Origin: a virus
Taxonomy: Duplodnaviria > Caudoviricetes
Length of the DNA: 64,000 nt
Direction: 5' to 3' (one strand)
Virus record (IMG/VR): IMGVR_UViG_3300031577_000195
Span: 17,064-81,063 of that record
Both the position numbers and the translations under genes were made by a program. The notes beneath the pieces were generated by a model. That model searched no databases, was not told the origin of the DNA, and was given only the letters and a program-made list of their open reading frames with translations. Positions 5,919 to 64,000 of this stretch are shown piece after piece (the first letter of the stretch is position 1; every line of letters begins with the position of its first letter).

Positions 5919-8900
5919 TTATACGCTATAACCCAAGTTTCTCATTCGTGATATCTGTGAATATAAGTCATCATCTGACTGAGCCTGTTGCATTACTATA
6001 GGTTGAGTCGTAGTATTACCTTTACTACTTTGCTTATTGAGTATTTCAAGTATCATTTGATTTTGTGTCATAAGCAAATTATTAGTACTCTCTATCGCAG
6101 CTATATGTTCCTGAGATTGCTTAAGATTAACCGATAGTGAGTTATTATTTTTTAATGTTTCTTGTGTTTTTTCGCTCAAATAAGGGGCAACTTGAGTACC
6201 CTTGTTAAGCATTCCCAATGCTTGTGCCGATTGCATAACTAGTGACTGACCTCTAGATTGATCCGTAAGAGGGATTACAGCTTCGGCTTTGTTGCCTTCG
6301 TTAAGAGTAGCTACATGTTCTTGATTGAAGATACCACCGTCTTCATGAGCGAACAAAGGTACTGCTTTAGACAGTAAGTTCCACCAGTTAGAACTATTTG
6401 ATGAACTAGTCTGCAGTTTCCTCTTTCGCTGATCTTCAGCTATCTTTTGGCTTTCGCTTAATGTGCCTGACTGAAGCCCTTCAGAAGATGTGTCAGAATT
6501 ACTAAAACTAGGTACATCAATATTAGCTAAATTCAACCAAGCCGGTTTAGATTCTTCAGCCGTTGCACTATCGGCAGATATACTTGGCTTATTCAATAGA
6601 GGCTGTATATCTGCTCCTAATGCTGACACTGTATTGGTGTTCACTGATTTCCTATTGTTATCAGTAACGGCTACTGGCTGAAGTCCTTTATGTTTATTAC
6701 CTGAAGCAAATCCAGTCCAGTCTTCAGTGTTGAAATCAACAGACGAGTAGTCTTGCTTAGTGCCTGACGAACCACCGAACCATTTATTCGATAGTTTAGT
6801 TAGCCAACTTACATTTGTATTTTCAACCCCCATAAGTGCTTTAAGAGCATCTTCAGCCATTTGTGACCAAAGATTTTTTAATGTATCTTTAAACTTATTG
6901 CCTTTAAGTAAAACCTTATCGGTTAAATCGTACCAGCCATCAAGTATAGCCTTATTTTTCTCCTGTTCATAGTTTTTGATTTCTTGGTCAGCCTGAAGTA
7001 CAACTAACTTTTGCTTCTCCATAGCTTCTTTAGCTGCATCAATTTTCTCTTGATATTTTTTTCTTTCGTCAGATTGCTCTTTGTCTGTTTTAAGTTCTCC
7101 CTTTTCGTTATACGCGCTGATATTGTTGTAAGCTTCAAGAGTATCTTCATAATCACTAGTCTTCTTGTCAAGTAACCCTTGCTGTATCCCCCGTTGTTCC
7201 CTAGCGTACTTAAGATTACTATCGGACATCTTCATAGACTTAAATGGACTAGTGCTATCTTTATAACCCAACTTTTCCATCTCTTGTCTACGTTTGCTTG
7301 CCTCAAGTTGCCTATTGAGAACTTGTTCTGTACTGTAATAGCCAGCGGTATCCAGTTGAATCAAGGAGTTCTTCTGCTTGCTAATTTCTTTAGTTGTACT
7401 TGAAATTTGCTCTTGAATCTTAATCCACATTTGGTAAATTTGCTGTGTAACTTGGCTTTCCGAAAGTAATTCACTATGGTCTTGGTTCAGTTCCTTTTGA
7501 CCCTTTTTACTAAGTTTACTGAAGTCTACATCTTTAAACTCAGGCATATTTTTCTCTAATTCCGCGAGTTGCCAACGAAGGTCATTCTCAAGTTGCGTTA
7601 AAGTACCTTTTGATGCTTCTGTTCCTAATGTTTTATCCGAGCCTACTGTTTCGCTTAGTTTTCTGATTTGCTCTTGAGTAGCCATACGTTTGTCTAGCCA
7701 AGTTTCAGCAGATTTACCTTGAAGATTTTCTTTAGTAGCTATATTATCAAGAGCTATAGCATAATCATCAGCAGTTTGCTTAAGTTTTAAGTTTATGTTT
7801 GCCTCTTGTTGCTTGAAGGCTAAAAGCTGAAGTTTCTCTTGGGTTAACTTAGTGTTGTCTATAGGATCTATTGAAGTACGTTTTTTAGGTGGAGTATCTT
7901 CAACTGTGCCAGTATCGTGAATATCGTCAATCTTAGTTCCCTCTTGTGCTTTTATACGTGCTACTTCATTTGCAGCTTTCGTTATAATCTGGTTTTGTTC
8001 TGTTTGGGCAGAAACCAGCCCGTCAGCTAAATCTTGAGCTGATTTTTTCTCTTGGTTTATAGCATTTTGTTTATTTTGGTCAGCAAACATAGTTCCAAAC
8101 TGACCTCCATAACCAATCATACCTAATTTTGTCCAACCATTATCAGCCGCTACAACAGTTTGTTTGTCAGCTTCATTTTTAGCTTTTAAATCAGCTAATC
8201 GAGTTAACCCTAATTGACGATATATTTCTATTTGTTTTTCTGCTTCAGTAGCTAACCCTTGAGTTTCTTGTTGGATTGCCTTTAGTCTTTGTTTGGCTTG
8301 GTCAGCAACCTCCATAGAATGATCTACAATCGCCTTTCGTTCTTCTTGTAGTTGTTCAGTTAAAGTTTTCTTTTTATCATTCATTTTAGCTATTTCAACA
8401 TCAATTTGTTGACCAACATCAGCACTATTTTTTATACGTTGTATAGCTTCTTCGCCTAGCATTGAAGTCAAAGCATGTTCTGTAGTTGCTATTTTTTCGT
8501 CGTTAGCCTTAATTTTATCCGCAACATTTAACCCTTGCGCCCTTTGTTCCTCAAGTTGTTTTTGTTGCTCAGTTAGTCTTTGGTATGCATCTTTAAGTTC
8601 ATTTGCAAATTTTATCCTACTTTCGTTTAAGCCAAGTTCAGCTTCAGTAGCACTTGCTTTATCCTCAAGGCGTGCGTTTTCTTTTTCGACTGCAGATGTT
8701 AATTCTTGTGTTTGCTTTACTGCCTCTGCCGATTGAGTATTGAATAAAGCATAAGCTGTAGTTCCAGCAATTATTAACGGTATTAATAAGTTTAATCCAC
8801 CAGTAGAAATTGTTCTAGCAATCGCAAGCGCACGTTCAGCCATAGTTAATTCTACAGTAGCCACAGCCTCGGCTTCTTTAGCTCCTGTGGCTACTGTAGT

Positions 8901-11108
8901 TGCAACATTTGCAGCTCCTTGCGCTAGTGTTCCAACGGATGTTGCAGTAGATTCTGCGGTTTTAGCTATAGTAGCATCATTTAATGCTTTATTATACAGT
9001 GTTAAAGCCATAGCCCCTAAGTTCCATACTGTAATTGCCGCTTTTACATAAATAGTGTATTCAACTATCGTACCTATATTCTGCCATACGCTTGCAGGGA
9101 TTGTTGTTAACCTACCAATAAGTACATTAATATCATCTATAACGCCTTTTATAAACTTAGTTAATCCAGAGTTACCTGCACCCATTACAATTTCCTGTAA
9201 TTGAGTGCCTAACCTTTGTAACTTGCGCGAAATTGTATCTACTTGCATTTCCGCTTGTTTTTCTGCTACACCTTGAGAGTTAATTGAAAGCTCTATAGTA
9301 CGAATAAGTTCATTGTAATCACCAATTAGACTAGCTACTTTATTATATTGGAATTTTCCTCCCGAAATGCTCAGCATAAGTTTTTCAACATTTTTATCTG
9401 TGGCGTCAGAGGTTAACATTAGGTCGATTAATACTTTCTCTGTGTCCCTAAATGCTTTTTTACCGTTTTCACCTACTTCATACATAGAGACACCAAGTTT
9501 TTCTATTTCTTTAATTGCCTTATCGCTATGTAATGAAACAAGCATTGAACGAATGGCATTTCCTATTTCACCACCTGACCTACCAGTATTACGAGCCATT
9601 GTTGCTATCATTCCTTGAAGAAAATCGAAAGATACTCCTGCTTGCTTAGCTGCACTTGCAGACCTTTCATTTGCTGCTGCTAAGTCTTGAGCTGAAACTA
9701 TCGCATTATGGGCAACATTTGTCCATGAATCAACTATCTTCATAGATAATTTTTGTGCTTCATTAGCATCTCTTGCACGCATTCCATACTGCATCATTGT
9801 GGCCTCTAATGCCTTGTTTGCTTCCGTAAGGCTAAAATTGTCCGCTACAGCTAGTAGACTTGAGGAATGCAATAAAGAATATACTTCATTAATATCTTTA
9901 TATGCTCTTCCCCATAATTTCGCTGATTCAGTAATTTCACCCATACTAGCACCGTATTGTTCTGCTATATTTAAAAACTCTATTGTGCTTTTATTAAGTT
10001 GTTCTTGATTATCGTGTAACTCTGGTATTACCTGCTTCATACCAGCCATACCCTGTTCGATTTCTTTTAAGTTACTTAAGGCTTCTAAGGGTATTGCAAA
10101 CAAAGAACCTAATGCTGCACCTGCGACAATCCAGTTAAAATGCGAACGGAACTTCTGCATGAAAGACCCAAGATATCCCGTTTGCTTTTCTAATGTTCCA
10201 GTTAAAGATTTACTAAAGGCATCTGATTCATCCCTTAGTTTTCTAAACGAGCTTACTTTATCATCAAACTTCAGTTTATCATTAACATCCTTAGTCTTTT
10301 GCCAAGTCTGATAAAACCCTTGTGCCTCAAGACTTAACTTTGATAACTGCTGTGAATACGTGGCTGGAACTACAGGTTTTTCAACAGTTTCTTTCTCAGG
10401 TTTTACTTCTGAATACGACTGTTTTAATGCATTAATTTGCGCCTGTGTTCTTCCAGCCATATAAGGATTGCTTTGCTCATTAAAACGTATCTTTTGATTC
10501 TCTAAGTCACGAATCATTTGTTTAGCTGTAGCTAATTCATCTAGTTCATTCTTAGTTATTAACGATACAGGTTTATCTTCCTTAGTCTTTTGCCCTGTCG
10601 TTAACGACATAAGTTTTTGTCTTTGACGTATCTCAGTTTCCAGTTGTGAGGCTAAATTTGTGTTACCACTTGCCCTAGCTTCAACCAAGGCGTTCTTTAG
10701 TGCAGAAACCTCTTTAGTAACCTTTTGTACTGCCGACATTTGTTTCTCGAACGGTTCAGCAAAACTCTTAGGATCAAGATAAGCCTTCATTTCAGCAAGT
10801 TCGACTTTAAGTTTCCTTACAGCTTCAGCTTGTTTTCGGAATGCACCATTGTTGCCATCTGAGGTGAACATTTTTTCGGCTTCTTTTTCCGCTTCTCGAA
10901 TTTGCTGTGTTAACAGTTTAATTTTTTCTTCAGTTTCTTCTACTGATTTTTTTGCCTTCGTAAACCCCTTGGAAACATTGTCACCAGTTCCAGCACCAAT
11001 CTCACCAAAAGCTTTCTTCACCTGTTCAACCTGCGAAATCAACTGAGATAAATTTTTTATAGCTAACTCAAACTGTATTTGGTTATTTTCATTGTCTATA
11101 CTAATCAC
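5919..11108 (-). CDS. Tail tape measure protein
   Basis: 1729 aa, helical, Ala/Gln-rich, TP901-type core around aa 350-650; follows the tail chaperones. Confidence 0.95.
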   Translation of the reverse strand: MISIDNENNQIQFELAIKNLSQLISQVEQVKKAFGEIGAGTGDNVSKGFTKAKKSVEETEEKIKLLTQQIREAEKEAEKMFTSDGNNGAFRKQAEAVRKLKVELAEMKAYLDPKSFAEPFEKQMSAVQKVTKEVSALKNALVEARASGNTNLASQLETEIRQRQKLMSLTTGQKTKEDKPVSLITKNELDELATAKQMIRDLENQKIRFNEQSNPYMAGRTQAQINALKQSYSEVKPEKETVEKPVVPATYSQQLSKLSLEAQGFYQTWQKTKDVNDKLKFDDKVSSFRKLRDESDAFSKSLTGTLEKQTGYLGSFMQKFRSHFNWIVAGAALGSLFAIPLEALSNLKEIEQGMAGMKQVIPELHDNQEQLNKSTIEFLNIAEQYGASMGEITESAKLWGRAYKDINEVYSLLHSSSLLAVADNFSLTEANKALEATMMQYGMRARDANEAQKLSMKIVDSWTNVAHNAIVSAQDLAAANERSASAAKQAGVSFDFLQGMIATMARNTGRSGGEIGNAIRSMLVSLHSDKAIKEIEKLGVSMYEVGENGKKAFRDTEKVLIDLMLTSDATDKNVEKLMLSISGGKFQYNKVASLIGDYNELIRTIELSINSQGVAEKQAEMQVDTISRKLQRLGTQLQEIVMGAGNSGLTKFIKGVIDDINVLIGRLTTIPASVWQNIGTIVEYTIYVKAAITVWNLGAMALTLYNKALNDATIAKTAESTATSVGTLAQGAANVATTVATGAKEAEAVATVELTMAERALAIARTISTGGLNLLIPLIIAGTTAYALFNTQSAEAVKQTQELTSAVEKENARLEDKASATEAELGLNESRIKFANELKDAYQRLTEQQKQLEEQRAQGLNVADKIKANDEKIATTEHALTSMLGEEAIQRIKNSADVGQQIDVEIAKMNDKKKTLTEQLQEERKAIVDHSMEVADQAKQRLKAIQQETQGLATEAEKQIEIYRQLGLTRLADLKAKNEADKQTVVAADNGWTKLGMIGYGGQFGTMFADQNKQNAINQEKKSAQDLADGLVSAQTEQNQIITKAANEVARIKAQEGTKIDDIHDTGTVEDTPPKKRTSIDPIDNTKLTQEKLQLLAFKQQEANINLKLKQTADDYAIALDNIATKENLQGKSAETWLDKRMATQEQIRKLSETVGSDKTLGTEASKGTLTQLENDLRWQLAELEKNMPEFKDVDFSKLSKKGQKELNQDHSELLSESQVTQQIYQMWIKIQEQISSTTKEISKQKNSLIQLDTAGYYSTEQVLNRQLEASKRRQEMEKLGYKDSTSPFKSMKMSDSNLKYAREQRGIQQGLLDKKTSDYEDTLEAYNNISAYNEKGELKTDKEQSDERKKYQEKIDAAKEAMEKQKLVVLQADQEIKNYEQEKNKAILDGWYDLTDKVLLKGNKFKDTLKNLWSQMAEDALKALMGVENTNVSWLTKLSNKWFGGSSGTKQDYSSVDFNTEDWTGFASGNKHKGLQPVAVTDNNRKSVNTNTVSALGADIQPLLNKPSISADSATAEESKPAWLNLANIDVPSFSNSDTSSEGLQSGTLSESQKIAEDQRKRKLQTSSSNSSNWWNLLSKAVPLFAHEDGGIFNQEHVATLNEGNKAEAVIPLTDQSRGQSLVMQSAQALGMLNKGTQVAPYLSEKTQETLKNNNSLSVNLKQSQEHIAAIESTNNLLMTQNQMILEILNKQSSKGNTTTQPIVMQQAQSDDDLYSQISRMRNLGYSV

Positions 11109-16231: not shown

Positions 16232-17254
16232 TTATTCAGCTTTTTGAAGGTTCAATCTTGAGACAGCCTTACATTTTTCAAGCGTACTCATGTTACTTGC
16301 ATAGATTTCATCAAGTTTCTTCTGTCGATCAGCATCGGTTGGCTTAAGGTCACTGTTGCCCATCATAAACTGACCAACTCCAGGCACAGGAGGTTTAGCA
16401 GCTTCAAATTTTGCTTTTTCTTCAGCTTCCTTCTGAGCAGCTTTGATTTTCTCTTGTTCAGCCTTTAGTTTAGCTTCTTCCTCTACCTTGGCTTTATCTT
16501 CTGCAGCCTTAAGTTTAGCCGCTTTCTTTTCTTCGGCTTGAGCCTTAAGGCTTTCTTGAGTTTCAGCTAAACCAAGAGCTAGTTTTCCCATTTCTTCATT
16601 AACTTTAGAGATTGACTCGCCAACTTCTGCTTTAATGTTAGCCACAAAGCCATCCAATAGGACCTTCATCTGTTCTTCATTCATATTCACATCATCCTTT
16701 GCTTTCTTATTTTGCAGACTTGCTACTAGTTCTCGAATATATGTACCTGAGAAAGCAGCAGTATTCTTCCAGAGCATCGCACACCCCGTCCCAGTAAACT
16801 CATCAATATACAAAAATCCATTGTCATTGTCATCATGAGTTTGATCAGCAAGAACTTCTATGCTAAAGCCCAAACTATCCTTACCATTAACAGCCATAAA
16901 GCTAATATCAGGAAACAGCATCTTCCATACGATAATTTGTGCCATTAGGTCTTCACCTTCTGGCCAAACCTTTTGAATTACTCCTATGTTAGTACTTCCG
17001 TGACCAGTAAACACTTCAGTACCATCACCAAACCATCCATCAGGAAAAGTACAATTTACAGGCATAAGTTCAAAGCTTTGATAGTTCTTATTGATGGAAT
17101 CCTGAGTAAACACTATTCGTTTCCCATCCGAACCACAAGGCGCACCATCACTAGCACTATTGATCTTAGTGATACACCCTTCGATAACCATCTTGTTTGG
17201 ATGAGATTCACTAAGGGAGAACTTCAAGTTTGACATTCCAAGTGTTAACTTCAA
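16232..17254 (-). CDS. Prohead protease with C-terminal scaffold domain
   Basis: N-terminal H...IG / LGFSIE protease-like part plus Ala/Lys/Glu coiled coil. Confidence 0.75.
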   Translation of the reverse strand: MKLTLGMSNLKFSLSESHPNKMVIEGCITKINSASDGAPCGSDGKRIVFTQDSINKNYQSFELMPVNCTFPDGWFGDGTEVFTGHGSTNIGVIQKVWPEGEDLMAQIIVWKMLFPDISFMAVNGKDSLGFSIEVLADQTHDDNDNGFLYIDEFTGTGCAMLWKNTAAFSGTYIRELVASLQNKKAKDDVNMNEEQMKVLLDGFVANIKAEVGESISKVNEEMGKLALGLAETQESLKAQAEEKKAAKLKAAEDKAKVEEEAKLKAEQEKIKAAQKEAEEKAKFEAAKPPVPGVGQFMMGNSDLKPTDADRQKKLDEIYASNMSTLEKCKAVSRLNLQKAE

Positions 17255-18079: not shown

Positions 18080-19408
18080 CTAATTAGTTTTATTTTCTGT
18101 AGTTTTGTCACCATAGTTGTCCTTGATATCTCCTTGACCATTGAAGCCCCCACTTTGAACATAGTAATCCTTATTGATTGCGGCCTTTTCCTCAAAGCTA
18201 TCCATATCAGCATACTCACTGTCGCTCTTGGGATATCCTAGTTCAACCAATGCTTGATTCTTAGTCAAAATTCCATTGATGTAATTGTTGTTAACCCTAT
18301 CTGACTTCAGCTTCTTTTGTGCTTCAGTTTCAGTGTATATAAGCTTATACTTAAAGAATCTATCGTAGCCCAATACCTTTAACACATGTTCATTTACTGC
18401 GTCTTCCCATATATCAGCATAAGGTTTTATAAGTTCCTTCAAGACTAACTCATCAAGTTCTTCTACTGTGCTTCTGTCGTTAGACAAAATCAAACCCATT
18501 TTTTCCCTTGGGATGCCAAAGGCTAATGCTATGATACCAATAAGAAACTGTTGCCACTCAAGATAAAGGCCATCTTTATTTATTGCTCTAATCTGTTTTG
18601 TCTCAATGCCATTACTACCAGCAGCCACAGGAATTTTACCAGTACCCTCAATGTCTTCCTCCATATATTTAATGAAGGCTTCGCGCTCTACATCTGTTAT
18701 GTTTTCGCCTAGATTAACCAAGAAGTCAGCAGTAGCATTATTGGCTACACCATCTGCTCTTTCATTAGCATTCAACAAATAAACGATGTAGTTATACGCC
18801 GATAAAACTGGTGATAATCCTTGTGGCCTATCCGTAAAGTAATTCCTTTGTAAATACGCTAGTTGTTGTGCAGTAAAATACTTTACTCCATCCTTGTATT
18901 GCAACTGTGCATACCTAGCAGCGTTAGCATCAGTGTAATCATAAGGCACTACATACTGAATTGTGCTACCATCAGTTGGATATAAAAAAAGAGGCTTATT
19001 AGGGTCACCCCCAATAGCCTTCTCGAAAACTCCAGCATCAATTGTCACAAGATCATCAATAATTAACTTAAGGAATGCCCTTCTGTTATGAATTACATTT
19101 GGATTATCCAAGATGTTCTGAGCAATAGTTTTTTGTACCTTATAGTCATTAGCATCAGTTGGATCAACATTGACAAACTCACCAGATAGCCTTACTATTT
19201 CATCCTCAATTAGATTTATAGGCCTTCGGACAATAGGATTCTTTGCGAAGTTTCTAAGTTGGGACACAGTAGGGTTCTTAGGTAATGTCTGCTTATATCC
19301 TTTGGTTAAGATGCCCCAAGAAAAATTCTGATTAGGAATCGTTTGTGGCTGTGGGTTATTCTTAGGCCTAGCTCCGAGTATTGACTTAAATTTACTCCAT
19401 AGTTCCAA
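18080..19408 (-). CDS. Portal protein
   Basis: 442 aa after terL; GLSP and IIALAFGIP..MG motifs. Confidence 0.9.
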   Translation of the reverse strand: MELWSKFKSILGARPKNNPQPQTIPNQNFSWGILTKGYKQTLPKNPTVSQLRNFAKNPIVRRPINLIEDEIVRLSGEFVNVDPTDANDYKVQKTIAQNILDNPNVIHNRRAFLKLIIDDLVTIDAGVFEKAIGGDPNKPLFLYPTDGSTIQYVVPYDYTDANAARYAQLQYKDGVKYFTAQQLAYLQRNYFTDRPQGLSPVLSAYNYIVYLLNANERADGVANNATADFLVNLGENITDVEREAFIKYMEEDIEGTGKIPVAAGSNGIETKQIRAINKDGLYLEWQQFLIGIIALAFGIPREKMGLILSNDRSTVEELDELVLKELIKPYADIWEDAVNEHVLKVLGYDRFFKYKLIYTETEAQKKLKSDRVNNNYINGILTKNQALVELGYPKSDSEYADMDSFEEKAAINKDYYVQSGGFNGQGDIKDNYGDKTTENKTN

Positions 19409-19420
19409 TATTTCACCTCC

Positions 19421-21073
19421 TTAGATGACCACGTTACCAGGAAGATATTTGGTTATATCAAAGTTCTTTTTATAGCTATTGCCATTAGAAATTGAACCAA
19501 AGGAAAAACTGCTTGCCCCTCCACCGCCCAATGTTCCGTATAAAGCCAACCATAGAGCATCAAGTAGGTTATCACTAGCCCCCTTGGGAAACCTACGCAT
19601 TTCCTCAAGTAACTTACGATGATCTTTACTAAACTTAATGTAATTATTACGAATAGGCATAATTAAAGACCTCAGTTTAAACTCCTTATCCCTATACTGC
19701 GGAGGTTTAACAGGGTCAAAAGGTAAGTACAAATTCTGTTCTCTTGCTTTCTTCTCCATAAGGTCTTTCAACAGTATCTGAAAGACTACATCTTCTGTTC
19801 TAACCGCACGTAGTACATCAAAGTATTGAATAGAGTAAAGTATCATTTGGTCAATAAGAATATCAGTGGGGACTTTTCTTGAGAATGCCTCAAGTATATA
19901 AAAGTAATTATCTTCACCCTTACCAAGTGCTACTATAGCTGAATCGTCAGACTTTCTTTTAGCTGTAGCTGCTGCATCTATTCCAAGCCAAACATCAGTT
20001 ATCTTAGGTAATTCTTCAGGCACATAGAAGTTTCTAGTAATCCAATCCTCTTTAATCTCACGCGATTCCTCAAGAAGTCCATCGTTCATCATTTCAGTTG
20101 CCCAAGCTTCATCACCCAAGCGTTGCTTTTCTTTCATGAGTGCTAAATAAGTATCTTCATACCTATCCCACAAAACTTTTGTGCCAGCAATCATTTCTTC
20201 CTTATGTTCAGCATAGAAATTGTCAGCATCCATACCACGATGAGGATTACTCAAGTCATTCCTTATGTTTAGCCATTCGTCCCATAGTGGTGAATCAGAC
20301 GACTCAATAACAGCCTGATATTTCTTGGTGTAGTAATCGCTGAATTGCGGGTCAGTCAGCATCTTATAGAGTAAACATGCGTCATTCAAAATTGTACCAA
20401 TGACAAACACAGAAACATACTTCTCGCCACATGGGATTAAAACTTTGTTGTACCAGTCGTATAACTTTTGTCTCTGATCTGAATTACTTGAATTTTTCTC
20501 ACTTAATATATCATCACAAATAATTACAGTTGGTCTAACGCCAAAAATCTTAGTACCACGAGTAGCCATTTCTGAACCCTTAGTGCTTATACATACGCCA
20601 TTCTTACATGCTATCTTATCAGTAGTCCATATTACATTACCAACTAGATTACCAAAGTCTTCATTGAACTTTTCGTTGTCCTCTATGAATTGCCTAATAT
20701 CAATTATAAACTGTCTACCTAGTGAGCCTTCAGAAGTTACTATAAGAATGTTCTTAGTGTGACCATAAGCGATACACCATAAGGGGAAAGCATAGGATGT
20801 CCAGAAAGATTTCATATGACCACGAGGGCTAACATAGCAACTCTGTGTCTTATTCTTTTTGTTGTTAAGTACAACATCTTCAAGTCTTTTACATATGTCA
20901 TAATGAAACTCACATAGGCTATCCCAAGGCTCCCGCTCTTCATCCCACAGGTAAACCCTAGTAAACTCTAACAAAGAGTATCTACATCTATCCTTATCAG
21001 AAGACTTATCGGTAATTATAAGTCGTTCTTCAATAACCTCTTGATTACCTAAGATTTCACCTAAAATATCCAT
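19421..21073 (-). CDS. terL: Terminase large subunit
   Basis: PRGHMKS Walker A, IICDD Walker B, LGIDAA nuclease motif, FPKG..D..LDAL. Confidence 0.95.
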   Translation of the reverse strand: MDILGEILGNQEVIEERLIITDKSSDKDRCRYSLLEFTRVYLWDEEREPWDSLCEFHYDICKRLEDVVLNNKKNKTQSCYVSPRGHMKSFWTSYAFPLWCIAYGHTKNILIVTSEGSLGRQFIIDIRQFIEDNEKFNEDFGNLVGNVIWTTDKIACKNGVCISTKGSEMATRGTKIFGVRPTVIICDDILSEKNSSNSDQRQKLYDWYNKVLIPCGEKYVSVFVIGTILNDACLLYKMLTDPQFSDYYTKKYQAVIESSDSPLWDEWLNIRNDLSNPHRGMDADNFYAEHKEEMIAGTKVLWDRYEDTYLALMKEKQRLGDEAWATEMMNDGLLEESREIKEDWITRNFYVPEELPKITDVWLGIDAAATAKRKSDDSAIVALGKGEDNYFYILEAFSRKVPTDILIDQMILYSIQYFDVLRAVRTEDVVFQILLKDLMEKKAREQNLYLPFDPVKPPQYRDKEFKLRSLIMPIRNNYIKFSKDHRKLLEEMRRFPKGASDNLLDALWLALYGTLGGGGASSFSFGSISNGNSYKKNFDITKYLPGNVVI

Positions 21074-34225: not shown

Positions 34226-34240
34226 GCGGTCTTTTCTTTT
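34208..34240. terminator. Bidirectional terminator
   Basis: AAGACCGCC-GATCAATA-GGCGGTCTT then TTCTTT. Confidence 0.8.
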
Positions 34241-34315
34241 GGAGCTAATGAGAGGACTTGAACCTCCAACATGCTAATTACAAATAAGCTGCTCTACCAA
34301 TTGAGCTACACTAGC
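34240..34315 (-). tRNA. trnT: tRNA-Thr(TGT)
   Basis: GCTAGTG/CATTAGC acceptor, TAGCTCAATTGGTAGAGC D arm, TTTGTAA loop, GGTTCAAGTCC, encoded CCA; one T:T in the anticodon stem. Confidence 0.9.
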
Positions 34316-34318
34316 ATA

Positions 34319-34393
34319 TGGCGAATCGGCTAGGACTCGAACCTAGATCGCAAGGTTTTGGAGACCTGCATGTTTCCATTACACCACCGAAAC
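34319..34393 (-). tRNA. trnW: tRNA-Trp(CCA), degenerate
   Basis: CTCCAAA loop, GGTTCGAGTCC, encoded CCA; two T:T acceptor mismatches and one C:T in the anticodon stem. Confidence 0.7.
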
Positions 34394-36073: not shown

Positions 36074-36098
36074 TGTTAATTGTTGAGTATTTTAGGCA
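36068..36098 (-). repeat. RBS-associated directional motif, copy 3
   Basis: TGCCTAAAATACTCAACAATTAACAATGGAGG; contains the MTase stop codon. Confidence 0.9.
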
Positions 36099-37159
36099 GA
36101 CTTAATGCGCTCATTAGCAATATTACAGTAGTTTTTATCAAGCTCAAATCCTAAATATCCAAAGGTTAGCTCCTGTGCTGCTACTAATGTTGTCCCTGAA
36201 CCACTAAAGGGGTCTAGCACTAGTCCTCCTGGTGGTGTCACAAGTGTTATTAAGTATTTCATAAGTGACTGAGGCTTAACTGTTGGATGGTTGTTGTTTA
36301 ATCCACGGTCCTTCTTGGACGCTTTGGAACAATAGAAGAATCTTGAAGCTCCACCTGAATCACCATAGCAAACCATTTCTGTCCCTTCTGGTCTACTTTC
36401 TTTTCCGTAAGTATTCCCTTGATAACCATTGCTTGTAGATTTCTTTTTTGCACCAGTTCCACTTGTTAAAACTCCTGTTTGTTCGTCAAGCAATTTTCCG
36501 GCCTCTTCGTCTAATATTACATTAGCCGGGAAACGACCTAGTTCATTAGGAATATATACAGTATCACGTTCACGCTCTGAATTATCGGCTTTATAAGCGT
36601 TGTTTTTTATATTCTGATTTGTGGTAGATTTGATTTTATCTGTAGTCCCTATCCTGCTTTTGTCAATGTTAATTCCACCAGTTCCCCATTTAAGCACATT
36701 AGCGACTATAGTCTTCTCTGATAGCCGTTTTCTAGCGACTACTATAGGTTCATTTGCAGGCTTTAGCGCAGTACCCCAGCCCTGCCATTGGATAGCTTCG
36801 GGTTCAGCTCCCGCCGCTTTGTCTATAGCCTTCGATATGTTCATACTCTTTGGAAATCCACTTCCATAAACCCACTGAATTTGATCACGTATCTCAAAAC
36901 CTGCGTCTTCAATAGCACAGGCCATCCTATGATACGTCCTAGTCCCACCAAAGGATAACAAATGTCCTCCTGGCTTTAACACTCGTAAACATTCGCGCCA
37001 TACGTCAACACTATAGGCAACCCTCGAACTGTCCCATTTCTTACCCATAAACCCAAGCTCATACGGGGGGTCTGTAACTATAGAATCAACACTATTATCA
37101 TCTAGCAACTTCATACCTTCGATGCAATCCATGTTATACACTTGGTTAATCTCTAGCAA
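36092..37159 (-). CDS. N4/N6 DNA methyltransferase (beta class)
   Basis: TDPPY catalytic motif, HPTVKP, LDPFSGSGTT SAM motif. Confidence 0.95.
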   Translation of the reverse strand: MLEINQVYNMDCIEGMKLLDDNSVDSIVTDPPYELGFMGKKWDSSRVAYSVDVWRECLRVLKPGGHLLSFGGTRTYHRMACAIEDAGFEIRDQIQWVYGSGFPKSMNISKAIDKAAGAEPEAIQWQGWGTALKPANEPIVVARKRLSEKTIVANVLKWGTGGINIDKSRIGTTDKIKSTTNQNIKNNAYKADNSERERDTVYIPNELGRFPANVILDEEAGKLLDEQTGVLTSGTGAKKKSTSNGYQGNTYGKESRPEGTEMVCYGDSGGASRFFYCSKASKKDRGLNNNHPTVKPQSLMKYLITLVTPPGGLVLDPFSGSGTTLVAAQELTFGYLGFELDKNYCNIANERIKSA

Positions 37160-38772: not shown

Positions 38773-39357
38773 CTAAAACGCACATTTCTTTTCTTCTTTA
38801 CAGTTATCACAGTTTCTAAAGTTTCTATCGAATATCTCTGGCATAACCAAAGCTAACTCATGCTGTATTCCTATGGCTATCTCTCGGTGTTCTGGCATTG
38901 CTCTCTTGCATACCCTCTTTGGCAAATACTCGAACCAACTGCGGAGATTACCAGTAATCCTAAGTTCAGTCATGGTTGCCTTGGGTAAAACATAAGCTGC
39001 ATCTTGCTTAGCAACACCATTTGCAATTAACTCTTGGTAAACATCAAAAGCATCTTCAATAGCACTTAAGTACATGACGCGGATACCGTAGTCTATTTCA
39101 TCAGGTATACAATAGTCCTCAAAGTCTGCACCTCTGGTACTCTTTACAGTAAAACTAAAGTGTCTATGTCTTGTTATTTGCCCTAAGACTCCCAAGGAAC
39201 ATTTGATATCGAAAGTTGCATAAGCATGTTCAAGGACTGACAAGTGTTGACTTTTGACTAACGGTTCGATTGACTTAGGTTGCCTTCCGTAGCATTTAGC
39301 ACTCGCACCCAAGATTAACTCCAGGTAATCCTTTGAGTAAGATATAAGTTTAACCAT
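38773..39357 (-). CDS. thyX: FAD-dependent thymidylate synthase
   Basis: HLSVLEH, QITRHRHFSFTVKSTR, A.YVLP, NLRSW. Confidence 0.92.
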   Translation of the reverse strand: MVKLISYSKDYLELILGASAKCYGRQPKSIEPLVKSQHLSVLEHAYATFDIKCSLGVLGQITRHRHFSFTVKSTRGADFEDYCIPDEIDYGIRVMYLSAIEDAFDVYQELIANGVAKQDAAYVLPKATMTELRITGNLRSWFEYLPKRVCKRAMPEHREIAIGIQHELALVMPEIFDRNFRNCDNCKEEKKCAF

Positions 39358-40437: not shown

Positions 40438-40629
40438 TTAGCATTCCTCCTTCTGATAAAGTCCACAGTGACATTCATCAGTTTCCCGATAGTCTTTACA
40501 TGGACATACATAGTCTTCAGCTTGATCACTTGTGTATACCCAAGGTGCCACACATGGGCAAAATGGTTTGCCGTAAAGTTCTTTATTGCGTTTAAGTCCA
40601 TTGATCACCGTTTGTTTATCTTTAGTCAT
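40438..40629 (-). CDS. Ferredoxin:thioredoxin reductase catalytic-subunit-like protein
   Basis: NKELYG...CPC...CPC...CHCGLY, the three Cys motifs of the FTR beta chain. Confidence 0.88.
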   Translation of the reverse strand: MTKDKQTVINGLKRNKELYGKPFCPCVAPWVYTSDQAEDYVCPCKDYRETDECHCGLYQKEEC

Positions 40630-41074
40630 AATCTACCTCCTTTCGTAAATACTTTTGGTTTGTACTTGCGAGTTCATATGATTCATCCCTAAGTTCTTCC
40701 ATATAGCGACCGACTTTGATTACATCGAAAAACTTAAAGCACCATTTTGGTATTTCCTCTTGGTCAGCACCAGTAAATAACCAAAGTTTCTTATCTTGAA
40801 ACTCATAACGCAATTCATAAGAAAACAGAAATGCTTCACTTGGCTTTTGACAAAGAAGATCGCCACCTATGATTGATATAATGTCGAACCATTGCTTTCC
40901 TTCATTCAACTCTTGGTATAACCTAACAGAATTCAAGGGTTCTCCATAATTATAATCCTGTAGTTGTGGATTATGGCATCCCTTACAATTCCTATAGCAA
41001 CCACTTGGATATATTTCTACAGCTACACCATCGTATGCATTTACAGCATCCCATTGTATTCCTGCAATATTCAC
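40622..41074 (-). CDS. nrdG: Anaerobic RNR activase
   Basis: SGCYRNCKGCHNP, IIGGD, WLFTG, G.Y...L...S.NQ. Confidence 0.92.
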   Translation of the reverse strand: MNIAGIQWDAVNAYDGVAVEIYPSGCYRNCKGCHNPQLQDYNYGEPLNSVRLYQELNEGKQWFDIISIIGGDLLCQKPSEAFLFSYELRYEFQDKKLWLFTGADQEEIPKWCFKFFDVIKVGRYMEELRDESYELASTNQKYLRKEVDYD

Positions 41075-41105: not shown

Positions 41106-41225
41106 TTACATTGAATAACATTTGCGACAATTAAACTCTTGTGCTTTTCCTTTGTTGAAATCCTTGATTTCTGCGTAATACCCTACGCACCTTGTGTAAA
41201 CTTTTGGTTGAACTTTAACTTTCAT
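41106..41225 (-). CDS. Stand-alone glycyl-radical domain of NrdD (39 aa)
   Basis: Manual translation MKVKVQPKVYTRCVGYYAEIKDFNKGKAQEFNCRKCYSM; TAATG overlap with the nrdD stop; RBS GGAGGTG. Confidence 0.88.
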   Translation of the reverse strand: MKVKVQPKVYTRCVGYYAEIKDFNKGKAQEFNCRKCYSM

Positions 41226-42925
41226 TATTCCACCTCCATTTCTATTCCTTGCTGTCTATAGGTTTCAATTTGCTCTTCTGTTAACACATGTTCACAAAGT
41301 TCACCCTTTGCGAGATGCTTAGAGCAAATTGGGCAAATCCTACGAGTTGGAGAAATGTTGATATACGGTAATGTTGTGTTGGTTACAAGTTTTCTTACGA
41401 TTGATTTTGCAGCTTTACCACCAATCGGTTCATCAATATAATGAAAGAAGCAAGCTCCACCACTAAATAAATTTTGTAAATCCTGCTGATGTTCTGCAGC
41501 AAACTTAAGACTATACTGGGTATCATTATCTAGCCATGAACCTCTTGTATATCTTGGTATATCTTCAGTTCCCGAAAGTATCATATCTGGATGCTGCTCT
41601 TTCATATGTTTTGCAAAACGATACATTGTTGATTCTCCTGGAATACTTTCAAGATTCATATAGATACCTCTGCCGTTATAGCAATGGCTATTCTTTTCCT
41701 GAAGTTCACCGATTTTATCATTCATATACCTTAGAACTTCTTCGGCAAAACTCTTGCCCTCTGGAGTATCAATATCATTACCATCAAAGTTTAAGCACAT
41801 TTCCCTAAGTCCTATGATTCCAATGGTTGAGAAAAAGTGGCTAAAGTCGTGGATATATCGATGTAACGTAGGATACATACCTTTTTCCATCATATCTTCG
41901 ATAAATGACCGCTTTTTACCTAATGCATCTATGGCTAACTCCATATATTCGTCAATGTACATATAGAATAGCTCTTTATTGCCTTCGGATAAGTGAGCAT
42001 ATAGTGGTAAGTTTAAGGTTACTACTCCAATACTACCTGAGTTATCAGCAGCACCAAAGCTACCTCCGACCTGTTTAGATACTTTTGACATATCCAATTT
42101 CAATGAGCAGCACATTGACTTAACGCTATCAGGATCATAATCAGAATTGACATAGTTATTAATTGTGGCTATTCCAGCTTCACCCAAGGTTTTAAATAAA
42201 GTTTCAGCAAATTTGTTATCCCAATTGAAATCCTTGGTTATGCCTATGTTAATCACAGGGAATGTAAGTACACTTTTGCTGTCTGCGAGTATTTCTAATA
42301 TTGCCCTTCCAATCCACTCAGCATATTCTTGGCAATCATCATAAGTAAAATCCAGTTCTTCTCCTGCGATAATTGGCTGTCTACCCTGAAGTCTCTTGGG
42401 TACTGTAATATCTAAATGCATGTTCACGAATGGACTCTGCCAACCTATACGCCCCTTAATATTAATCGAATGAATAAACTCTTGTAATGTCTGTTTCATC
42501 TGCTTGTAAGTTAACTTATCGTTTTTAACGTAAGGAGCAAGAAGAATATCTACAGTATTAAATGCTACAGCACCATTGATTTGTTGACTTATGAGAAATA
42601 TTGCATTCATGGTTTGGCTTAAAGCTGAACTAAAATGCTTTGGCGCACCATCAATATCGTTAAGCCCCTTCATTAGAAACATCTCGTAGTCCAGCCCAAG
42701 ACAATATAGATTCATTCCGCTGAGATCGTGAATATGATAAAAGCATTTCTTATGGGCATCTGCCATTTCCTGAGTATAAATATTGTCCAGCATATATTTA
42801 GATGTAATATGGTTCAGTACATACCCTAGCATTCCTGGATAAGCGTAAGATGCATTAGAGTTCTCCTTGATTCTCCAGTCAGTATTTGCAACATAAGTAT
42901 CGATAAGATTATTAGTATTTAGCAA
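41225..42925 (-). CDS. nrdD: Class III ribonucleotide reductase catalytic body (no ATP cone, no Gly-radical tail)
   Basis: ENSN, HIHDL, YCLG, SMCCSL, GSIGVVTLNLP, NLESIPGES, CPIC...C; ends without the RxxGY loop. Confidence 0.93.
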   Translation of the reverse strand: MLNTNNLIDTYVANTDWRIKENSNASYAYPGMLGYVLNHITSKYMLDNIYTQEMADAHKKCFYHIHDLSGMNLYCLGLDYEMFLMKGLNDIDGAPKHFSSALSQTMNAIFLISQQINGAVAFNTVDILLAPYVKNDKLTYKQMKQTLQEFIHSINIKGRIGWQSPFVNMHLDITVPKRLQGRQPIIAGEELDFTYDDCQEYAEWIGRAILEILADSKSVLTFPVINIGITKDFNWDNKFAETLFKTLGEAGIATINNYVNSDYDPDSVKSMCCSLKLDMSKVSKQVGGSFGAADNSGSIGVVTLNLPLYAHLSEGNKELFYMYIDEYMELAIDALGKKRSFIEDMMEKGMYPTLHRYIHDFSHFFSTIGIIGLREMCLNFDGNDIDTPEGKSFAEEVLRYMNDKIGELQEKNSHCYNGRGIYMNLESIPGESTMYRFAKHMKEQHPDMILSGTEDIPRYTRGSWLDNDTQYSLKFAAEHQQDLQNLFSGGACFFHYIDEPIGGKAAKSIVRKLVTNTTLPYINISPTRRICPICSKHLAKGELCEHVLTEEQIETYRQQGIEMEVE

Positions 42926-51441: not shown

Positions 51442-52587
51442 TCAGATAGCCATTTCCTTCATACTTGTTGTTTGTTTGTTGGAAATCAATTGAATATACC
51501 TTGCACCGTCTATACCATTCCTAGCCTTGCCAATCTTAGAGCTAATAATGTTGTCTTCTCCTGATTCTTCCATTGCTTGACGATCTATAGGTGATATCTT
51601 TGGATTCTCTGATTCCTTCCAGAGTAGCCAAGCAATATCGCCAACTGCCTCTATTGCTCCCCCCCCTTTTAAATTCGAAATATCTGGTTCTTCCCAAGAT
51701 TTTGTTGTACGCGCCATCTGTGACAAAGCAATTAACATAATATTTAATCGTCTTGCTATAGGTTTAAATGACATTACATTTTCCTCAAAATAACTAAAGT
51801 CGCTCATTTTAGGCATCATCTGGACATAATCTATGCCTATAACCTGTGTTTTCCCGCCGTTGTGCTTGAATAGCTCCTTAGAATTTATTGTCAATACTCG
51901 TTCTTCAATATTATTAATAGATAATGTTGGGTTATCATTGATGTACAGATATTCCTGAACTTTAGATAATACAACCGAATAGTCAATTTGTTTATTTCTA
52001 ACTTTTTCTTCAAGTTCTTTAACAGATATCCCATAAATGTTCGCTACAATCCGTTTATAAAGTTTACCAGCAGACATTTCTAAGGAAAACAACACAACGT
52101 TTATTTTTAGCCTAATAGCCATATGAAGTGCAATTTCCATAAGGACAAAAGTTTTACCTATTCCTGGCCTAGCAGCAATAAAAAATACGTCAGTTAAGCT
52201 AAGTCCACCTATTGCATTATCGAATGTAGGATAGCCAGTGGTTATTCCTTCGTGATGTAAAATAGAGTCTTCCATTTCTCTGATACAGGTATAAGCATCC
52301 TTAAACTCGTTTATAATTTCATCTGATGTTGATACTTCCGACACCTTAAGGAACTCTTTAATTTCTGTAATGTCTTTATCCCATTGTTGACTCAAAAGTT
52401 TCGCTAAATCAGACCTTATAAGCGGACTTTTGATTGTCCTTGAGTATTTTTCAATTGCTTTATATTGAGCGTTTTGGTCATCAGGGTACTGTTGTAGCAA
52501 CTGATTGGCACAATAGATATCTATAGGTTGAGTATATAAGTCTGATATCTGATGTCCTGCTAAAAGCAAGTCGTTAAAATCCTTCAT
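51442..52587 (-). CDS. DnaB-like replicative helicase
   Basis: AARPGIGKT, FSLEM, IDYVQ, ALSQ, KGGGAIE..D, GKARNG. Confidence 0.92.
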   Translation of the reverse strand: MKDFNDLLLAGHQISDLYTQPIDIYCANQLLQQYPDDQNAQYKAIEKYSRTIKSPLIRSDLAKLLSQQWDKDITEIKEFLKVSEVSTSDEIINEFKDAYTCIREMEDSILHHEGITTGYPTFDNAIGGLSLTDVFFIAARPGIGKTFVLMEIALHMAIRLKINVVLFSLEMSAGKLYKRIVANIYGISVKELEEKVRNKQIDYSVVLSKVQEYLYINDNPTLSINNIEERVLTINSKELFKHNGGKTQVIGIDYVQMMPKMSDFSYFEENVMSFKPIARRLNIMLIALSQMARTTKSWEEPDISNLKGGGAIEAVGDIAWLLWKESENPKISPIDRQAMEESGEDNIISSKIGKARNGIDGARYIQLISNKQTTSMKEMAI

Positions 52588-55463: not shown

Positions 55464-56627
55464 CTACTCTCCATACTTAAGTAAAAACTCTGGATTAATC
55501 GCCTTGAAGCTAATCCGGTTTCTCACCAATTGACAATGCAGTTCCCTATCTTCGGTTTCCTCAAGTGGCCTAATGACTATACCTTCACGTTTGGTCTGTG
55601 GTGTGATTGTAGAACTACCCTTAGACATTTCCACAAGTTCATCAATGTTGTTAGTTAAGGTGAAGTCCGTAGATAACACAGGTACAGTCTCTAGGGCAAG
55701 TACACAAATTATCGCTTCAAATTCATGGAAATCAAGATACTGTTGCTTATCAATATTAAATACATTAAAGAATCTAATGGTGTGGCCTTTAATTTTCAGC
55801 TTGTTACTCTGAATACCCTCACCAAGGAGTTCGCCTTGTAAAGCAAAGTTTTTCAAAGGGACAACACTAGCAACTTCAGCATACTTACGCATCTTCTCTT
55901 CGATGTCCATTGTTCTCACGGTATCCCAAAAGGTATTCCCTTCAGTTTCCGCAAGGTCAATGTTACGAGAGCATACTCCAAACTCACCATTCTTGAGGTA
56001 AATTGTTATGCTTGAACCATCAAGCTTCTCTGTGATGTAGCATTTAGTACCTTGGTATTTGTCGAGTAGTTTTTGCAGTACCTGGACTCTCGTTTCGTCA
56101 GTCTTAGGAACGAAGTAAGGAAATGATTCACCAGCTTTAGTCGCTAGATTTCTCTTGAACCATTTAGGAAACCAGCTATTGAGATATGTAGCAATGAACT
56201 TAGGTATCCACTTGGGATAAACATATCGTGCAACCGTTTGATTATCTCGGATATCTGCAGATACCTCTGGTTCATACTTGGTAATACCTAAGATTTCAGT
56301 TACATCGAAATCTTCACAATAGTCCTCTGGGTTGCCTGAGTGGTTCGGTAGAATACTTAATGGCATCACAAGTCCTTGGCTAATCTGTCCTCTAAGTTTG
56401 ACTGTACGAATCTTCTTCATTTTACCTTGTGAATCCTTAAGGAACTCAAACTCTGGCCTATCGGGACATATTGAGTCTGGTTCAATAAAGACAACTAAGT
56501 CATTAACCTTAAATTCATCCTTCTTGATTACACAATGCCATCCAAGGACTGTAGCAACCTCAATTGCATCAGCGTTAGGTATTGGCTCAATCTTAAGTAT
56601 ACGTTGGATACTCGCGAGTTTTCTCAT
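55464..56627 (-). CDS. RNA ligase (Rnl2 / DRB0094-like with N-terminal OB fold)
   Basis: RKLASI...PI..AD, KLRG..SQG, KTDE.R, EKLDGSS, QGEL.G.GIQ, EGIV, FK.I. Confidence 0.92.
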   Translation of the reverse strand: MRKLASIQRILKIEPIPNADAIEVATVLGWHCVIKKDEFKVNDLVVFIEPDSICPDRPEFEFLKDSQGKMKKIRTVKLRGQISQGLVMPLSILPNHSGNPEDYCEDFDVTEILGITKYEPEVSADIRDNQTVARYVYPKWIPKFIATYLNSWFPKWFKRNLATKAGESFPYFVPKTDETRVQVLQKLLDKYQGTKCYITEKLDGSSITIYLKNGEFGVCSRNIDLAETEGNTFWDTVRTMDIEEKMRKYAEVASVVPLKNFALQGELLGEGIQSNKLKIKGHTIRFFNVFNIDKQQYLDFHEFEAIICVLALETVPVLSTDFTLTNNIDELVEMSKGSSTITPQTKREGIVIRPLEETEDRELHCQLVRNRISFKAINPEFLLKYGE

Positions 56628-62689: not shown

Positions 62690-62911
62690 TACCTTTGTTA
62701 AACTTTGTTATCGCAAATATATTGTATCTTTTGTTATTGCATATGTATATTCTTAGATGCTATAATTATCACGATAGGTCACAGACTAAGGTTTTATTAT
62801 TAATCGCTAATCTCAATTATGCAAACATGTGTTCTACTTCCTTAGTTTACCATATGATTTTCCATTTATCAACAATTATTTGCACCGCAATAAAAAAGAA
62901 AGGTGAAAGAA

Positions 62912-64000
62912 ATGGCACGTAGACGCAAAGGTGAAGGCACTCAGTACAAAACCACAATTAATAAAAAAATGTATTTTGCAGTTGAAAAAACAATTGATGG
63001 GAAAAAGCATACAGCTTACTCCAGAAAATCCTATAAAGAGGCTGCTGATAAACTTAAAGCTAAACTTCAGAATACTTCAAATGAATCAAAGTTAACCGTT
63101 GAGTATCTCTTTAAAGAATGGCTGGCATTTAAGTTAAACAAGGTTAAGACAAGAACATACGAAAATTACGCCATGTATGTAAAGAATAGGATTGTCCCAA
63201 GTTTAGGTGAGATACTATTAACCAAATTAACCACACACGATCTTGAGGAGTTCTATGACGACCTAGTGAACGACAATGTTAATCCTATGACCGTCCAAGG
63301 ACTTCATGGGTATATATACAACGCTATCGAGTATGGCATCAAAAGAGAATGGCTTACTAATAACGTTGCACAAAGATGTGAACTACCAAAAGGTAAACCA
63401 CCGAATATCTATGTACTCTCTGAAGATGAAATAAAGACTTTACTCGAATCAGCCCAAGGTACTCGTATGTATCTCCCAATACTTCTCACGTTGGCCTCTG
63501 GTGTCCGTAAAGGCGAACTTTTAGGACTCATGGGTAAAGATGTAGGTAGCAACTCTATTACCATCTCTAGGTCACTAGGGCCAATTAGGAGAAACGGAGA
63601 TGTAAAAAGCAGATTGGAGCTTGGTAGTACTAAGAACGAAGCCATTAGAACCATACCATTGCCTACTGAGATAATCGAGCAATTACCTAAAGTTGATAAA
63701 AATGAAATGCTATTTCCGTCAGCTAATGGTCACCTTTGGTTTCCTTCAAGTTTCAGTGTAGAATTCAAGGCGATTAAATTGAAAGCAAATTTAGGAGATG
63801 TTAGGTTTCATGACTTAAGACATACTCATGCATCTCATATGTTAGCCAATGGTGTTGATATTGTCACAGTTGCCCAGCGGTTAGGCCACAAGAATATACG
63901 AACAACACTGAATACTTATGCACACGTTATACAAAAGGCTCAACTCGAAGCCGCAAACAAAATTGCAACCTTTTTGCCATACACCTTAAATAAACCTTAA
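62912..64000 (+). CDS. int: Tyrosine integrase
   Basis: RR.GEG arm domain, SGVRKGELLGL, HDLRHTHA, RLGH....TT...YAH; RBS AAAGGTG. Confidence 0.97.
   Translation: MARRRKGEGTQYKTTINKKMYFAVEKTIDGKKHTAYSRKSYKEAADKLKAKLQNTSNESKLTVEYLFKEWLAFKLNKVKTRTYENYAMYVKNRIVPSLGEILLTKLTTHDLEEFYDDLVNDNVNPMTVQGLHGYIYNAIEYGIKREWLTNNVAQRCELPKGKPPNIYVLSEDEIKTLLESAQGTRMYLPILLTLASGVRKGELLGLMGKDVGSNSITISRSLGPIRRNGDVKSRLELGSTKNEAIRTIPLPTEIIEQLPKVDKNEMLFPSANGHLWFPSSFSVEFKAIKLKANLGDVRFHDLRHTHASHMLANGVDIVTVAQRLGHKNIRTTLNTYAHVIQKAQLEAANKIATFLPYTLNKP

Follow-up and report, generated by a model that had tools for sequence, protein, structure and literature searches.

The window analysed here is a stretch of 64,000 nucleotides (positions 17,064 to 81,063) of the IMG/VR virus record IMGVR_UViG_3300031577_000195, whose 81,063 bp represent a temperate, siphovirus-like provirus. 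On its minus strand lies a locus for a class III ribonucleotide reductase (RNR) in which the catalytic subunit, NrdD, is encoded by two genes. The large gene stops short of the radical glycine, and a small gene of 39 amino acids (aa) carries the glycyl-radical loop. Genes for the radical S-adenosylmethionine activase NrdG and for a small protein similar to the ferredoxin:thioredoxin reductase (FTR) catalytic chain follow. The features of the locus are:

41225..42925, minus strand: large chain (566 aa) of nrdD, with AAGGAG ahead of its TTG start (reading of the open reading frame, Pfam and NCBIfam matches)
41106..41225, minus strand: glycyl-radical peptide gene, 39 aa, with its ATG at 41223..41225 (match to the tail of Pfam NRDD)
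41231..41237, minus strand: Shine-Dalgarno sequence GGAGGTG of the small gene, within the last nrdD codons and 5 nt before the ATG
41181..41183, minus strand: codon of Gly15 of the 39-aa peptide (sequence reading)
40622..41074, minus strand: nrdG, radical S-adenosylmethionine activase, 150 aa, with a GTG start 31 nt past the small gene (Pfam Fer4_12)
40438..40629, minus strand: 63-aa protein resembling the FTR catalytic chain, overlapping the end of nrdG (PF02943)

The two NrdD genes meet at a TAATG junction, where the stop codon TAA of nrdD (41225..41227) and the ATG of the small gene (41223..41225) share one base, and the small gene is read in frame -1 with respect to nrdD. The downstream order on the minus strand is nrdD, the 39-aa gene, nrdG and the 63-aa FTR-like gene. 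No terminator-like site was found on the minus strand between nrdD, the small gene and nrdG, which is weak evidence for their co-transcription.

The nrdG product was recognized by Pfam Fer4_12 (E 3.9e-17) and by the NrdG models TIGR02826 and TIGR02491 (E ~1e-18). The 63-aa protein matches FeThRed_B (PF02943) over the cut-off, with E 4.6e-12, and has all the cysteines of the pattern CPC-x15-CPC-x8-CHC. An FTR-like gene is also present 3' of nrdG in a related complete phage (L007, 12319..12498) and on 8 contigs that encode a peptide identical to that of the window. This protein is a possible electron-delivery partner, which would give the phage RNR a ferredoxin-to-disulfide route. A comparable route, by way of a ferredoxin disulfide reductase, is said to have been described by Wei et al. 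in 2015 for the class III RNR of M. barkeri.

The relation between the large and the small product was assessed with family models. The large chain covers positions 1-534 of the 562 positions of Pfam NRDD (PF13597), with E 3.5e-108 and 363 bits versus a cut-off of 26.2, and the 39-aa peptide covers positions 534-562 (E 8.5e-6). The NCBIfam model PRK08270 (NF006126), with 684 positions, is matched at 99-655 by the large chain, which scores 565.7 bits versus a cut-off of 548, and at 651-682 by the small one. This adjoining, gap-free coverage indicates that the two products are two pieces of one NrdD. An ATP-cone is absent from both products in the Pfam and NCBIfam model matches.

The large chain ends at residue 566 and has no RxxGY radical glycine, the loop being located on the 39-aa product. 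On the structure of NrdD from T. maritima (4COI), a profile of 19 large chains could be aligned up to residue 612, at the CPVCG zinc knuckle, and the small-chain profile covers residues 610-644, which include the M-R-I-V-G-Y radical loop. Judged from the ends of the two profiles, the cut parts the zinc site from the loop and precedes the radical glycine by about 10 residues.

The residues that class III catalysis calls for are retained on the large chain. C531, C534, C544 and H546 (Cys3His), invariant in 19 clade members, form a predicted zinc-binding site that lies wholly on this chain. The conserved beta-A cysteine C75 and the finger-loop cysteines C272 and C273 (SMCCSL) are invariant in 19 homologues, and the latter two align with the CC of T. 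maritima NrdD. The chain continues for about 20 residues past the zinc site, with a helix at 550-558 in the AlphaFold2 model. This model has a mean predicted local distance difference test score (pLDDT) of 83 and a predicted template modelling score (pTM) of 0.83, and Foldseek ranks class III RNR structures highest among its matches (E 1e-23 to 1e-19, template modelling score ~0.7).

The 39-aa peptide consists of an N-terminal MKVKV strand, the loop R12-C-V-G15-Y-Y and a following segment N24-K-G-K-x-x-E30, which belongs to the motif NKGKxxEF of the NrdD tail. Across 9 small chains, R12, G15, Y16, N24, G26, K27 and E30 are invariant. No match to the Gly_radical domain (PF01228) of the pyruvate formate-lyase (PFL) type was obtained for the peptide, NRDD being its sole Pfam match at E up to 1. 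The initial annotation, made from the letters of the window, had described a 566-aa NrdD ending past its zinc site and a short helical tail, followed by a radical loop on the next open reading frame with its own GGAGGTG and TAATG coupling. The open reading frame, the Pfam matches and the AlphaFold2 model confirm the former, and sequence reading confirms the latter.

Independent assemblies were used to assess whether the division of the gene is real. Gene calling gave an identical 39-aa protein on 8 contigs of 20-200 kb from independent assemblies, and these contigs share the order 566-aa NrdD, 39-aa peptide, 150-aa NrdG and 63-aa FTR-like protein. The small gene had been thought to be overlooked by gene calling; public gene callers do annotate it, on these 8 contigs. 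In the closest relative, L014, the NrdD is 83% identical and the TAATG junction is the same. Synonymous divergence (dS) between the two loci is saturated, so codon counts are given instead of dN/dS: the peptides agree at 28 of 39 residues, and in 13 codons the only differences are synonymous. As judged from this comparison, the 39-aa peptide is under purifying selection. A small gene was present in all five clade relatives inspected, in two of them adjacent to nrdD and in three remote from it:

L014, closest relative: small peptide of 40 aa, adjacent to nrdD, with a TAATG overlap
L007, complete phage with terminal repeats: small peptide of 39 aa, adjacent to nrdD, with an ATGA overlap
L002, Anaeroselena agilis prophage: peptide of 41 aa, 1.06 kb downstream, past three genes and directly before nrdG
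L008, complete phage: small peptide of 38 aa, 1.7 kb downstream of nrdD
L004, 164-kb contig: small peptide of 39 aa, 4.3 kb downstream, past eleven genes

A ribosome-binding site of the GGAGG type stands 5-9 nt before the start of the small gene in 10 of 10 loci compared, coupled or remote. The one-base overlap of the frames and the -1 frame of the small open reading frame in the window could also be taken as signs of a single joined polypeptide or of an artefact, arising from a programmed -1 frameshift at the overlap, trans-splicing of the protein, decay to a pseudogene, or an error of sequencing or assembly. This explanation is, however, extremely improbable. The junction lacks a slippery heptamer, and both L014 and the 8 contigs have the same junction. 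Moreover, the catalytic residues are invariant, and 3 to 11 genes part the small gene from nrdD in L002, L004 and L008. These remote small genes exclude frameshift fusion or read-through as the general mechanism. A split intein was also considered and rejected, given that the flanks are far too short (20 aa past the zinc site and 11 aa before R12 of the peptide).

Database searches with the locus gave few relatives. No match was found by blastn of the region against GenBank phages, and tblastn of the peptide found fused NrdD tails only, such as that of MT835493, whose single-chain NrdD of 802 aa has a thioredoxin-like domain at its C-terminus. The search for related loci returned 3 viral loci only and none among genome contigs; one of the three, L009 (24% identity), has no radical motif.

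The 81-kb provirus record contains exactly one large gene, without the radical glycine, and one small gene, and two complete related phages with terminal repeats likewise have one large and one small gene each. In the provirus, the peptide is the sole radical carrier. This gene content shows that the peptide is the regular carrier of the radical and not a spare. The reading that we favour, with a probability of roughly 0.85, is that this temperate siphovirus-like prophage encodes a class III RNR that obligatorily consists of two chains, a 566-aa barrel chain and a 39-aa radical chain.

Such an enzyme could work as follows. The genes for the large chain, the small chain, NrdG and the FTR-like protein would be co-transcribed, and the small gene would be translated through termination-reinitiation at the TAATG, helped by its own Shine-Dalgarno sequence. 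NrdG, with S-adenosylmethionine and a reduced 4Fe-4S cluster, would abstract a hydrogen atom from Gly15 of the peptide. The loop of the peptide would then sit in the barrel beside the finger-loop cysteines, like the covalent tail of the T. maritima and T4 NrdD, and once docked it would generate the thiyl radical that starts the reduction of nucleoside triphosphates. In this scheme, the association of the chains, the action of NrdG on the peptide, the activity of the enzyme and its reductant are what we infer.

Several points weigh against the obligate two-chain enzyme. It is proposed here from gene sequences, and the docking of the peptide in the barrel of the large chain would follow from homology to the covalent tail. 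In the solved single-chain NrdD enzymes this tail is tethered, whereas here it would be a free 39-mer that would have to bind tightly enough by itself. Moreover, the NrdG of the window scores under the equivalog cut-offs of TIGR02826 and TIGR02491.

The distribution of the split was explored among the 120 best NrdD homologues, of which 56 end just past the zinc site without the RxxGY loop and 62 are fused. A quick maximum-likelihood tree (LG+G4) was calculated from 74 non-redundant sequences after their C-terminal columns had been taken out of the alignment. The split and fused labels on this tree were assigned by regular expression, and a few of the rows labelled as split outside the clade of the window may be truncated gene calls. 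The NrdD of the window falls in a clade of 28 rows, all of them split, with a support of 100 in the Shimodaira-Hasegawa-like approximate likelihood-ratio test (SH-aLRT). All members end after CPxC...CxH and a helix. The cut falls at the same point in 28 of 28 clade members. The deliberate fission into a two-chain class III RNR that the initial annotation had proposed is strongly supported by this clade-wide conservation, together with the remote small genes, the purifying selection and the independent assemblies.

The same design was observed in four other NrdD lineages, each with translational coupling between the two genes:

701 aa + 174 aa, the small chain joining a radical loop to a thioredoxin-like domain
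659 aa + 66 aa
571 aa + 54 aa
570 aa + 45 aa

Two of these four lineages have nrdR-nrdD-small-nrdG operons on cellular contigs. Several split lineages share a similar extra tail past the zinc site, H-[ST]-x-E-E-[IL]...G.

The NrdD tree requires at least six changes between split and fused forms. This alternation, and the position of the small gene 1 to 4 kb away in phage relatives, would fit a neutral fission, in which a stop or start mutation or an insertion of mobile DNA was tolerated with no selective benefit and later shuffling moved the small gene. In glycyl-radical enzymes in general, the radical tail leaves the barrel to meet the activase. Given that the tail must make this move anyway, a covalent linkage would be dispensable. 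Inteins and homing-endonuclease domains are common in the clade (PF14890 and PF14528 in P0008, P0011, P0014 and P0017), and phages are known to have RNRs of classes I and II that function in a split state (PMC3653736). Neutral fission has somewhat less than an even chance of being the explanation. The split is kept down to ~50% identity across the 28-member clade with zero re-fusions, which speaks against it, and the common extra tail hints at adaptation to the two-chain state. The lack of re-fusion and the similar tails added across split lineages keep an adaptive reading alive.

Small stand-alone chains were also searched for directly. The 39-aa query is too short for a homologue search, and an alignment headed by the 40-aa L014 peptide was used in its place. 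A profile of nine small chains recovered 827 clusters (90% identity) of 20-116-aa proteins, some short matches from short contigs possibly being gene fragments. RxxG[YF] occurs in each of the best 120 of these 827 clusters, and the median position of its glycine is 16. When the profile was run without an index against 1.84 billion representatives, it gave 5054 matches at E <= 0.001, of which the best 150 all have lengths of 39-170 aa. Named examples of the small chain, from Anaeroselena agilis and Thermosulfidibacter takaii, are annotated as "hypothetical protein". From these sequence comparisons, the two-piece layout of NrdD is conserved and widespread, with putative small stand-alone tails in hundreds to thousands of clusters.

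The two-chain enzyme proposed here has much in common with the single-chain NrdD and NrdG systems of T. maritima (4COI/4U3E), T4 (1H78-1H7B), P. copri (8P23) and S. thermophilus (9D3X). The large chain is modelled with the same fold, the ten-stranded catalytic barrel of NrdD, and single-chain class III RNRs likewise have a C-terminal zinc site, an RxxGY loop and an adjacent radical S-adenosylmethionine activase. The finger loop of the window is of the double-cysteine kind and has a Met ahead of the cysteines (MCCS), in which it resembles the MCCR type that is in the majority (PMC9669993). In contrast to the single-chain enzymes, the radical loop of the window is a separate 39-aa polypeptide, cut off at T. 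maritima residues 610-612, and the Cys3His zinc site is wholly on the large chain, with an extra helix after it and no ATP-cone in either product.

Divided catalytic subunits are also known in other RNR classes, and working split RNRs are frequent in phages (PMC9669993, PMC3653736). NrdJa/NrdJb of class II (Pseudomonas and Thermus phage phiYS40) and NrdA-a/NrdA-b of class Ia (Aeromonas phage Aeh1) are likewise encoded by two consecutive genes. Like these, the pair of the window consists of two separately translated chains that jointly span one catalytic subunit and are conserved among relatives. The NrdJa/b and Aeh1 NrdA splits, however, part large domains, and none detaches the radical-bearing element, unlike the nrdD of the window. 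In a phage survey of 2013, the split nrdD cases were interruptions by introns or inteins, or fragmentation, with no separate gene for the radical loop (PMC3653736). No description of a separately encoded NrdD radical loop was found in open-access papers and preprints; what these report is nrdD genes that introns or inteins interrupt, nrdD genes in fragments, and RNRs of classes I and II that are split. To our knowledge, the radical glycine is on the catalytic polypeptide in every characterised glycyl-radical enzyme, and GrcA, for PFL, is the sole radical module published as a free-standing protein.

GrcA (YfiD) of E. coli and Y06I of T4 are similar to the 39-aa peptide in being small, free-standing glycyl-radical loops for a radical S-adenosylmethionine activase that are inserted in trans into a large barrel. 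The peptide differs in size (39 aa versus 127 aa for GrcA) and in belonging to the NRDD family and not to the PFL-type Gly_radical family. GrcA, moreover, is a spare beside an intact PFL, where it replaces a tail cleaved by O2, whereas the large chain of the window never has a tail of its own.

This likeness raises the possibility that the split exists for repair, as with GrcA and PFL: a peptide cleaved by O2 would leave, and a fresh 39-mer would restore the 65-kDa body. As this would require, the radical site is on a peptide that costs little and is translated separately, from a strong ribosome site of its own, and the GrcA/YfiD precedent is established for PFL (PMC13450708). The host Anaeroselena agilis, too, has an intact NrdD together with two proteins (91 and 171 aa) that resemble the NrdD tail, stand alone and are encoded away from the split operon, showing that free radical modules do co-occur with a complete enzyme. 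Repair as the reason for the split is nevertheless unlikely. The provirus and the two complete phages have one small gene and no glycine-bearing large chain, which makes the peptide a regular part, and the at least six split/fused changes on the tree are equally expected if fission is merely tolerated. Tolerated fission is an equally good account of the split as repair. Exchange of the peptide after O2 damage would be a plausible consequence of the architecture, by analogy with GrcA.

In its fullest form, this idea would make the peptide a diffusible, consumable radical cofactor, activated by NrdG while free in solution and then docked, with the fragments dissociating upon cleavage by O2 and a new peptide re-arming the 65-kDa body. 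We regard this as doubtful. If true, it would offer phages and anaerobes a cheap recovery of deoxynucleoside triphosphate synthesis after transient exposure to O2. Spare-part-like systems would then extend beyond the formate lyases for the first time, and the peptide would be the smallest glycyl-radical protein known. According to a 2026 review, spare parts are known only for formate lyases (PMC13450708).

A further explanation is that the peptide mainly serves the host, as a phage-supplied, GrcA-like part for an oxygen-damaged host NrdD. Phage T4 reportedly provides a parallel, its GrcA homologue Y06I being said to act on the host PFL, and Anaeroselena, the host of a relative of the window's phage, has an intact NrdD. 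Such a role is very unlikely, since the peptide is always accompanied by a truncated large chain (6/6 clade loci and every other split lineage inspected), and this phage chain would have no radical source without it.

If the obligate two-chain enzyme is confirmed, its radical site would reside on 39 residues that can be synthesised chemically. Recognition of the substrate by the activase, entry of the loop into the barrel and exchange of the module would become directly testable, and isotope-labelled or variant peptides could be added in trans. The split also bears on annotation, given that large chains are named as complete reductases and small genes are called "hypothetical" or missed, and that the split type makes up about half of the 120 closest NrdD homologues.

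The prophage context of the locus is given by the following features of the window:

5919..11108, minus strand: tape measure protein
18080..19408, minus strand: portal
19421..21073, minus strand: large terminase
34240..34393, minus strand: tRNA-Thr and tRNA-Trp
36092..37159, minus strand: DNA methyltransferase
~38773..39357, minus strand: ThyX-like gene
51442..52587, minus strand: DnaB-like helicase
55464..56627, minus strand: RNA ligase
62903..64000, plus strand: integrase

Further forms of the NrdD tail were observed in related sequences. The Anaeroselena agilis chromosome encodes both an intact host NrdD (682-aa frame) and the split NrdD of the prophage. Its two stand-alone proteins that end in an NrdD-type loop (..RRITGYLS..FNDAK.AE) are found at L024 3776..4051 (plus strand) and L023 3827..4342 (plus strand); the 91-aa protein adjoins a sigma-54 regulator, and the 171-aa protein is in another prophage-like region. 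As true spare parts, these two proteins are more plausible candidates than the peptide of the window.

In a cellular nrdR operon (L010, 8106..8630, plus strand), the 174-aa small chain has the radical loop followed by a CPNC thioredoxin-like domain. This module of loop and thioredoxin-like domain is also fused C-terminally in some single-chain NrdDs, for instance an 802-aa protein in L001. In three small proteins (P0246, P0247 and P0252), 56-73 aa contain two tandem copies of the loop motif, through a micro-duplication or an assembly artefact.

Within the clade of the window, the large chains P0008, P0011, P0014, P0017 and P0025 are extended to 700-980 aa by inteins and LAGLIDADG elements (PF14890, PF14528 and PF05204). 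The NrdD genes of this clade are frequent targets of mobile elements.

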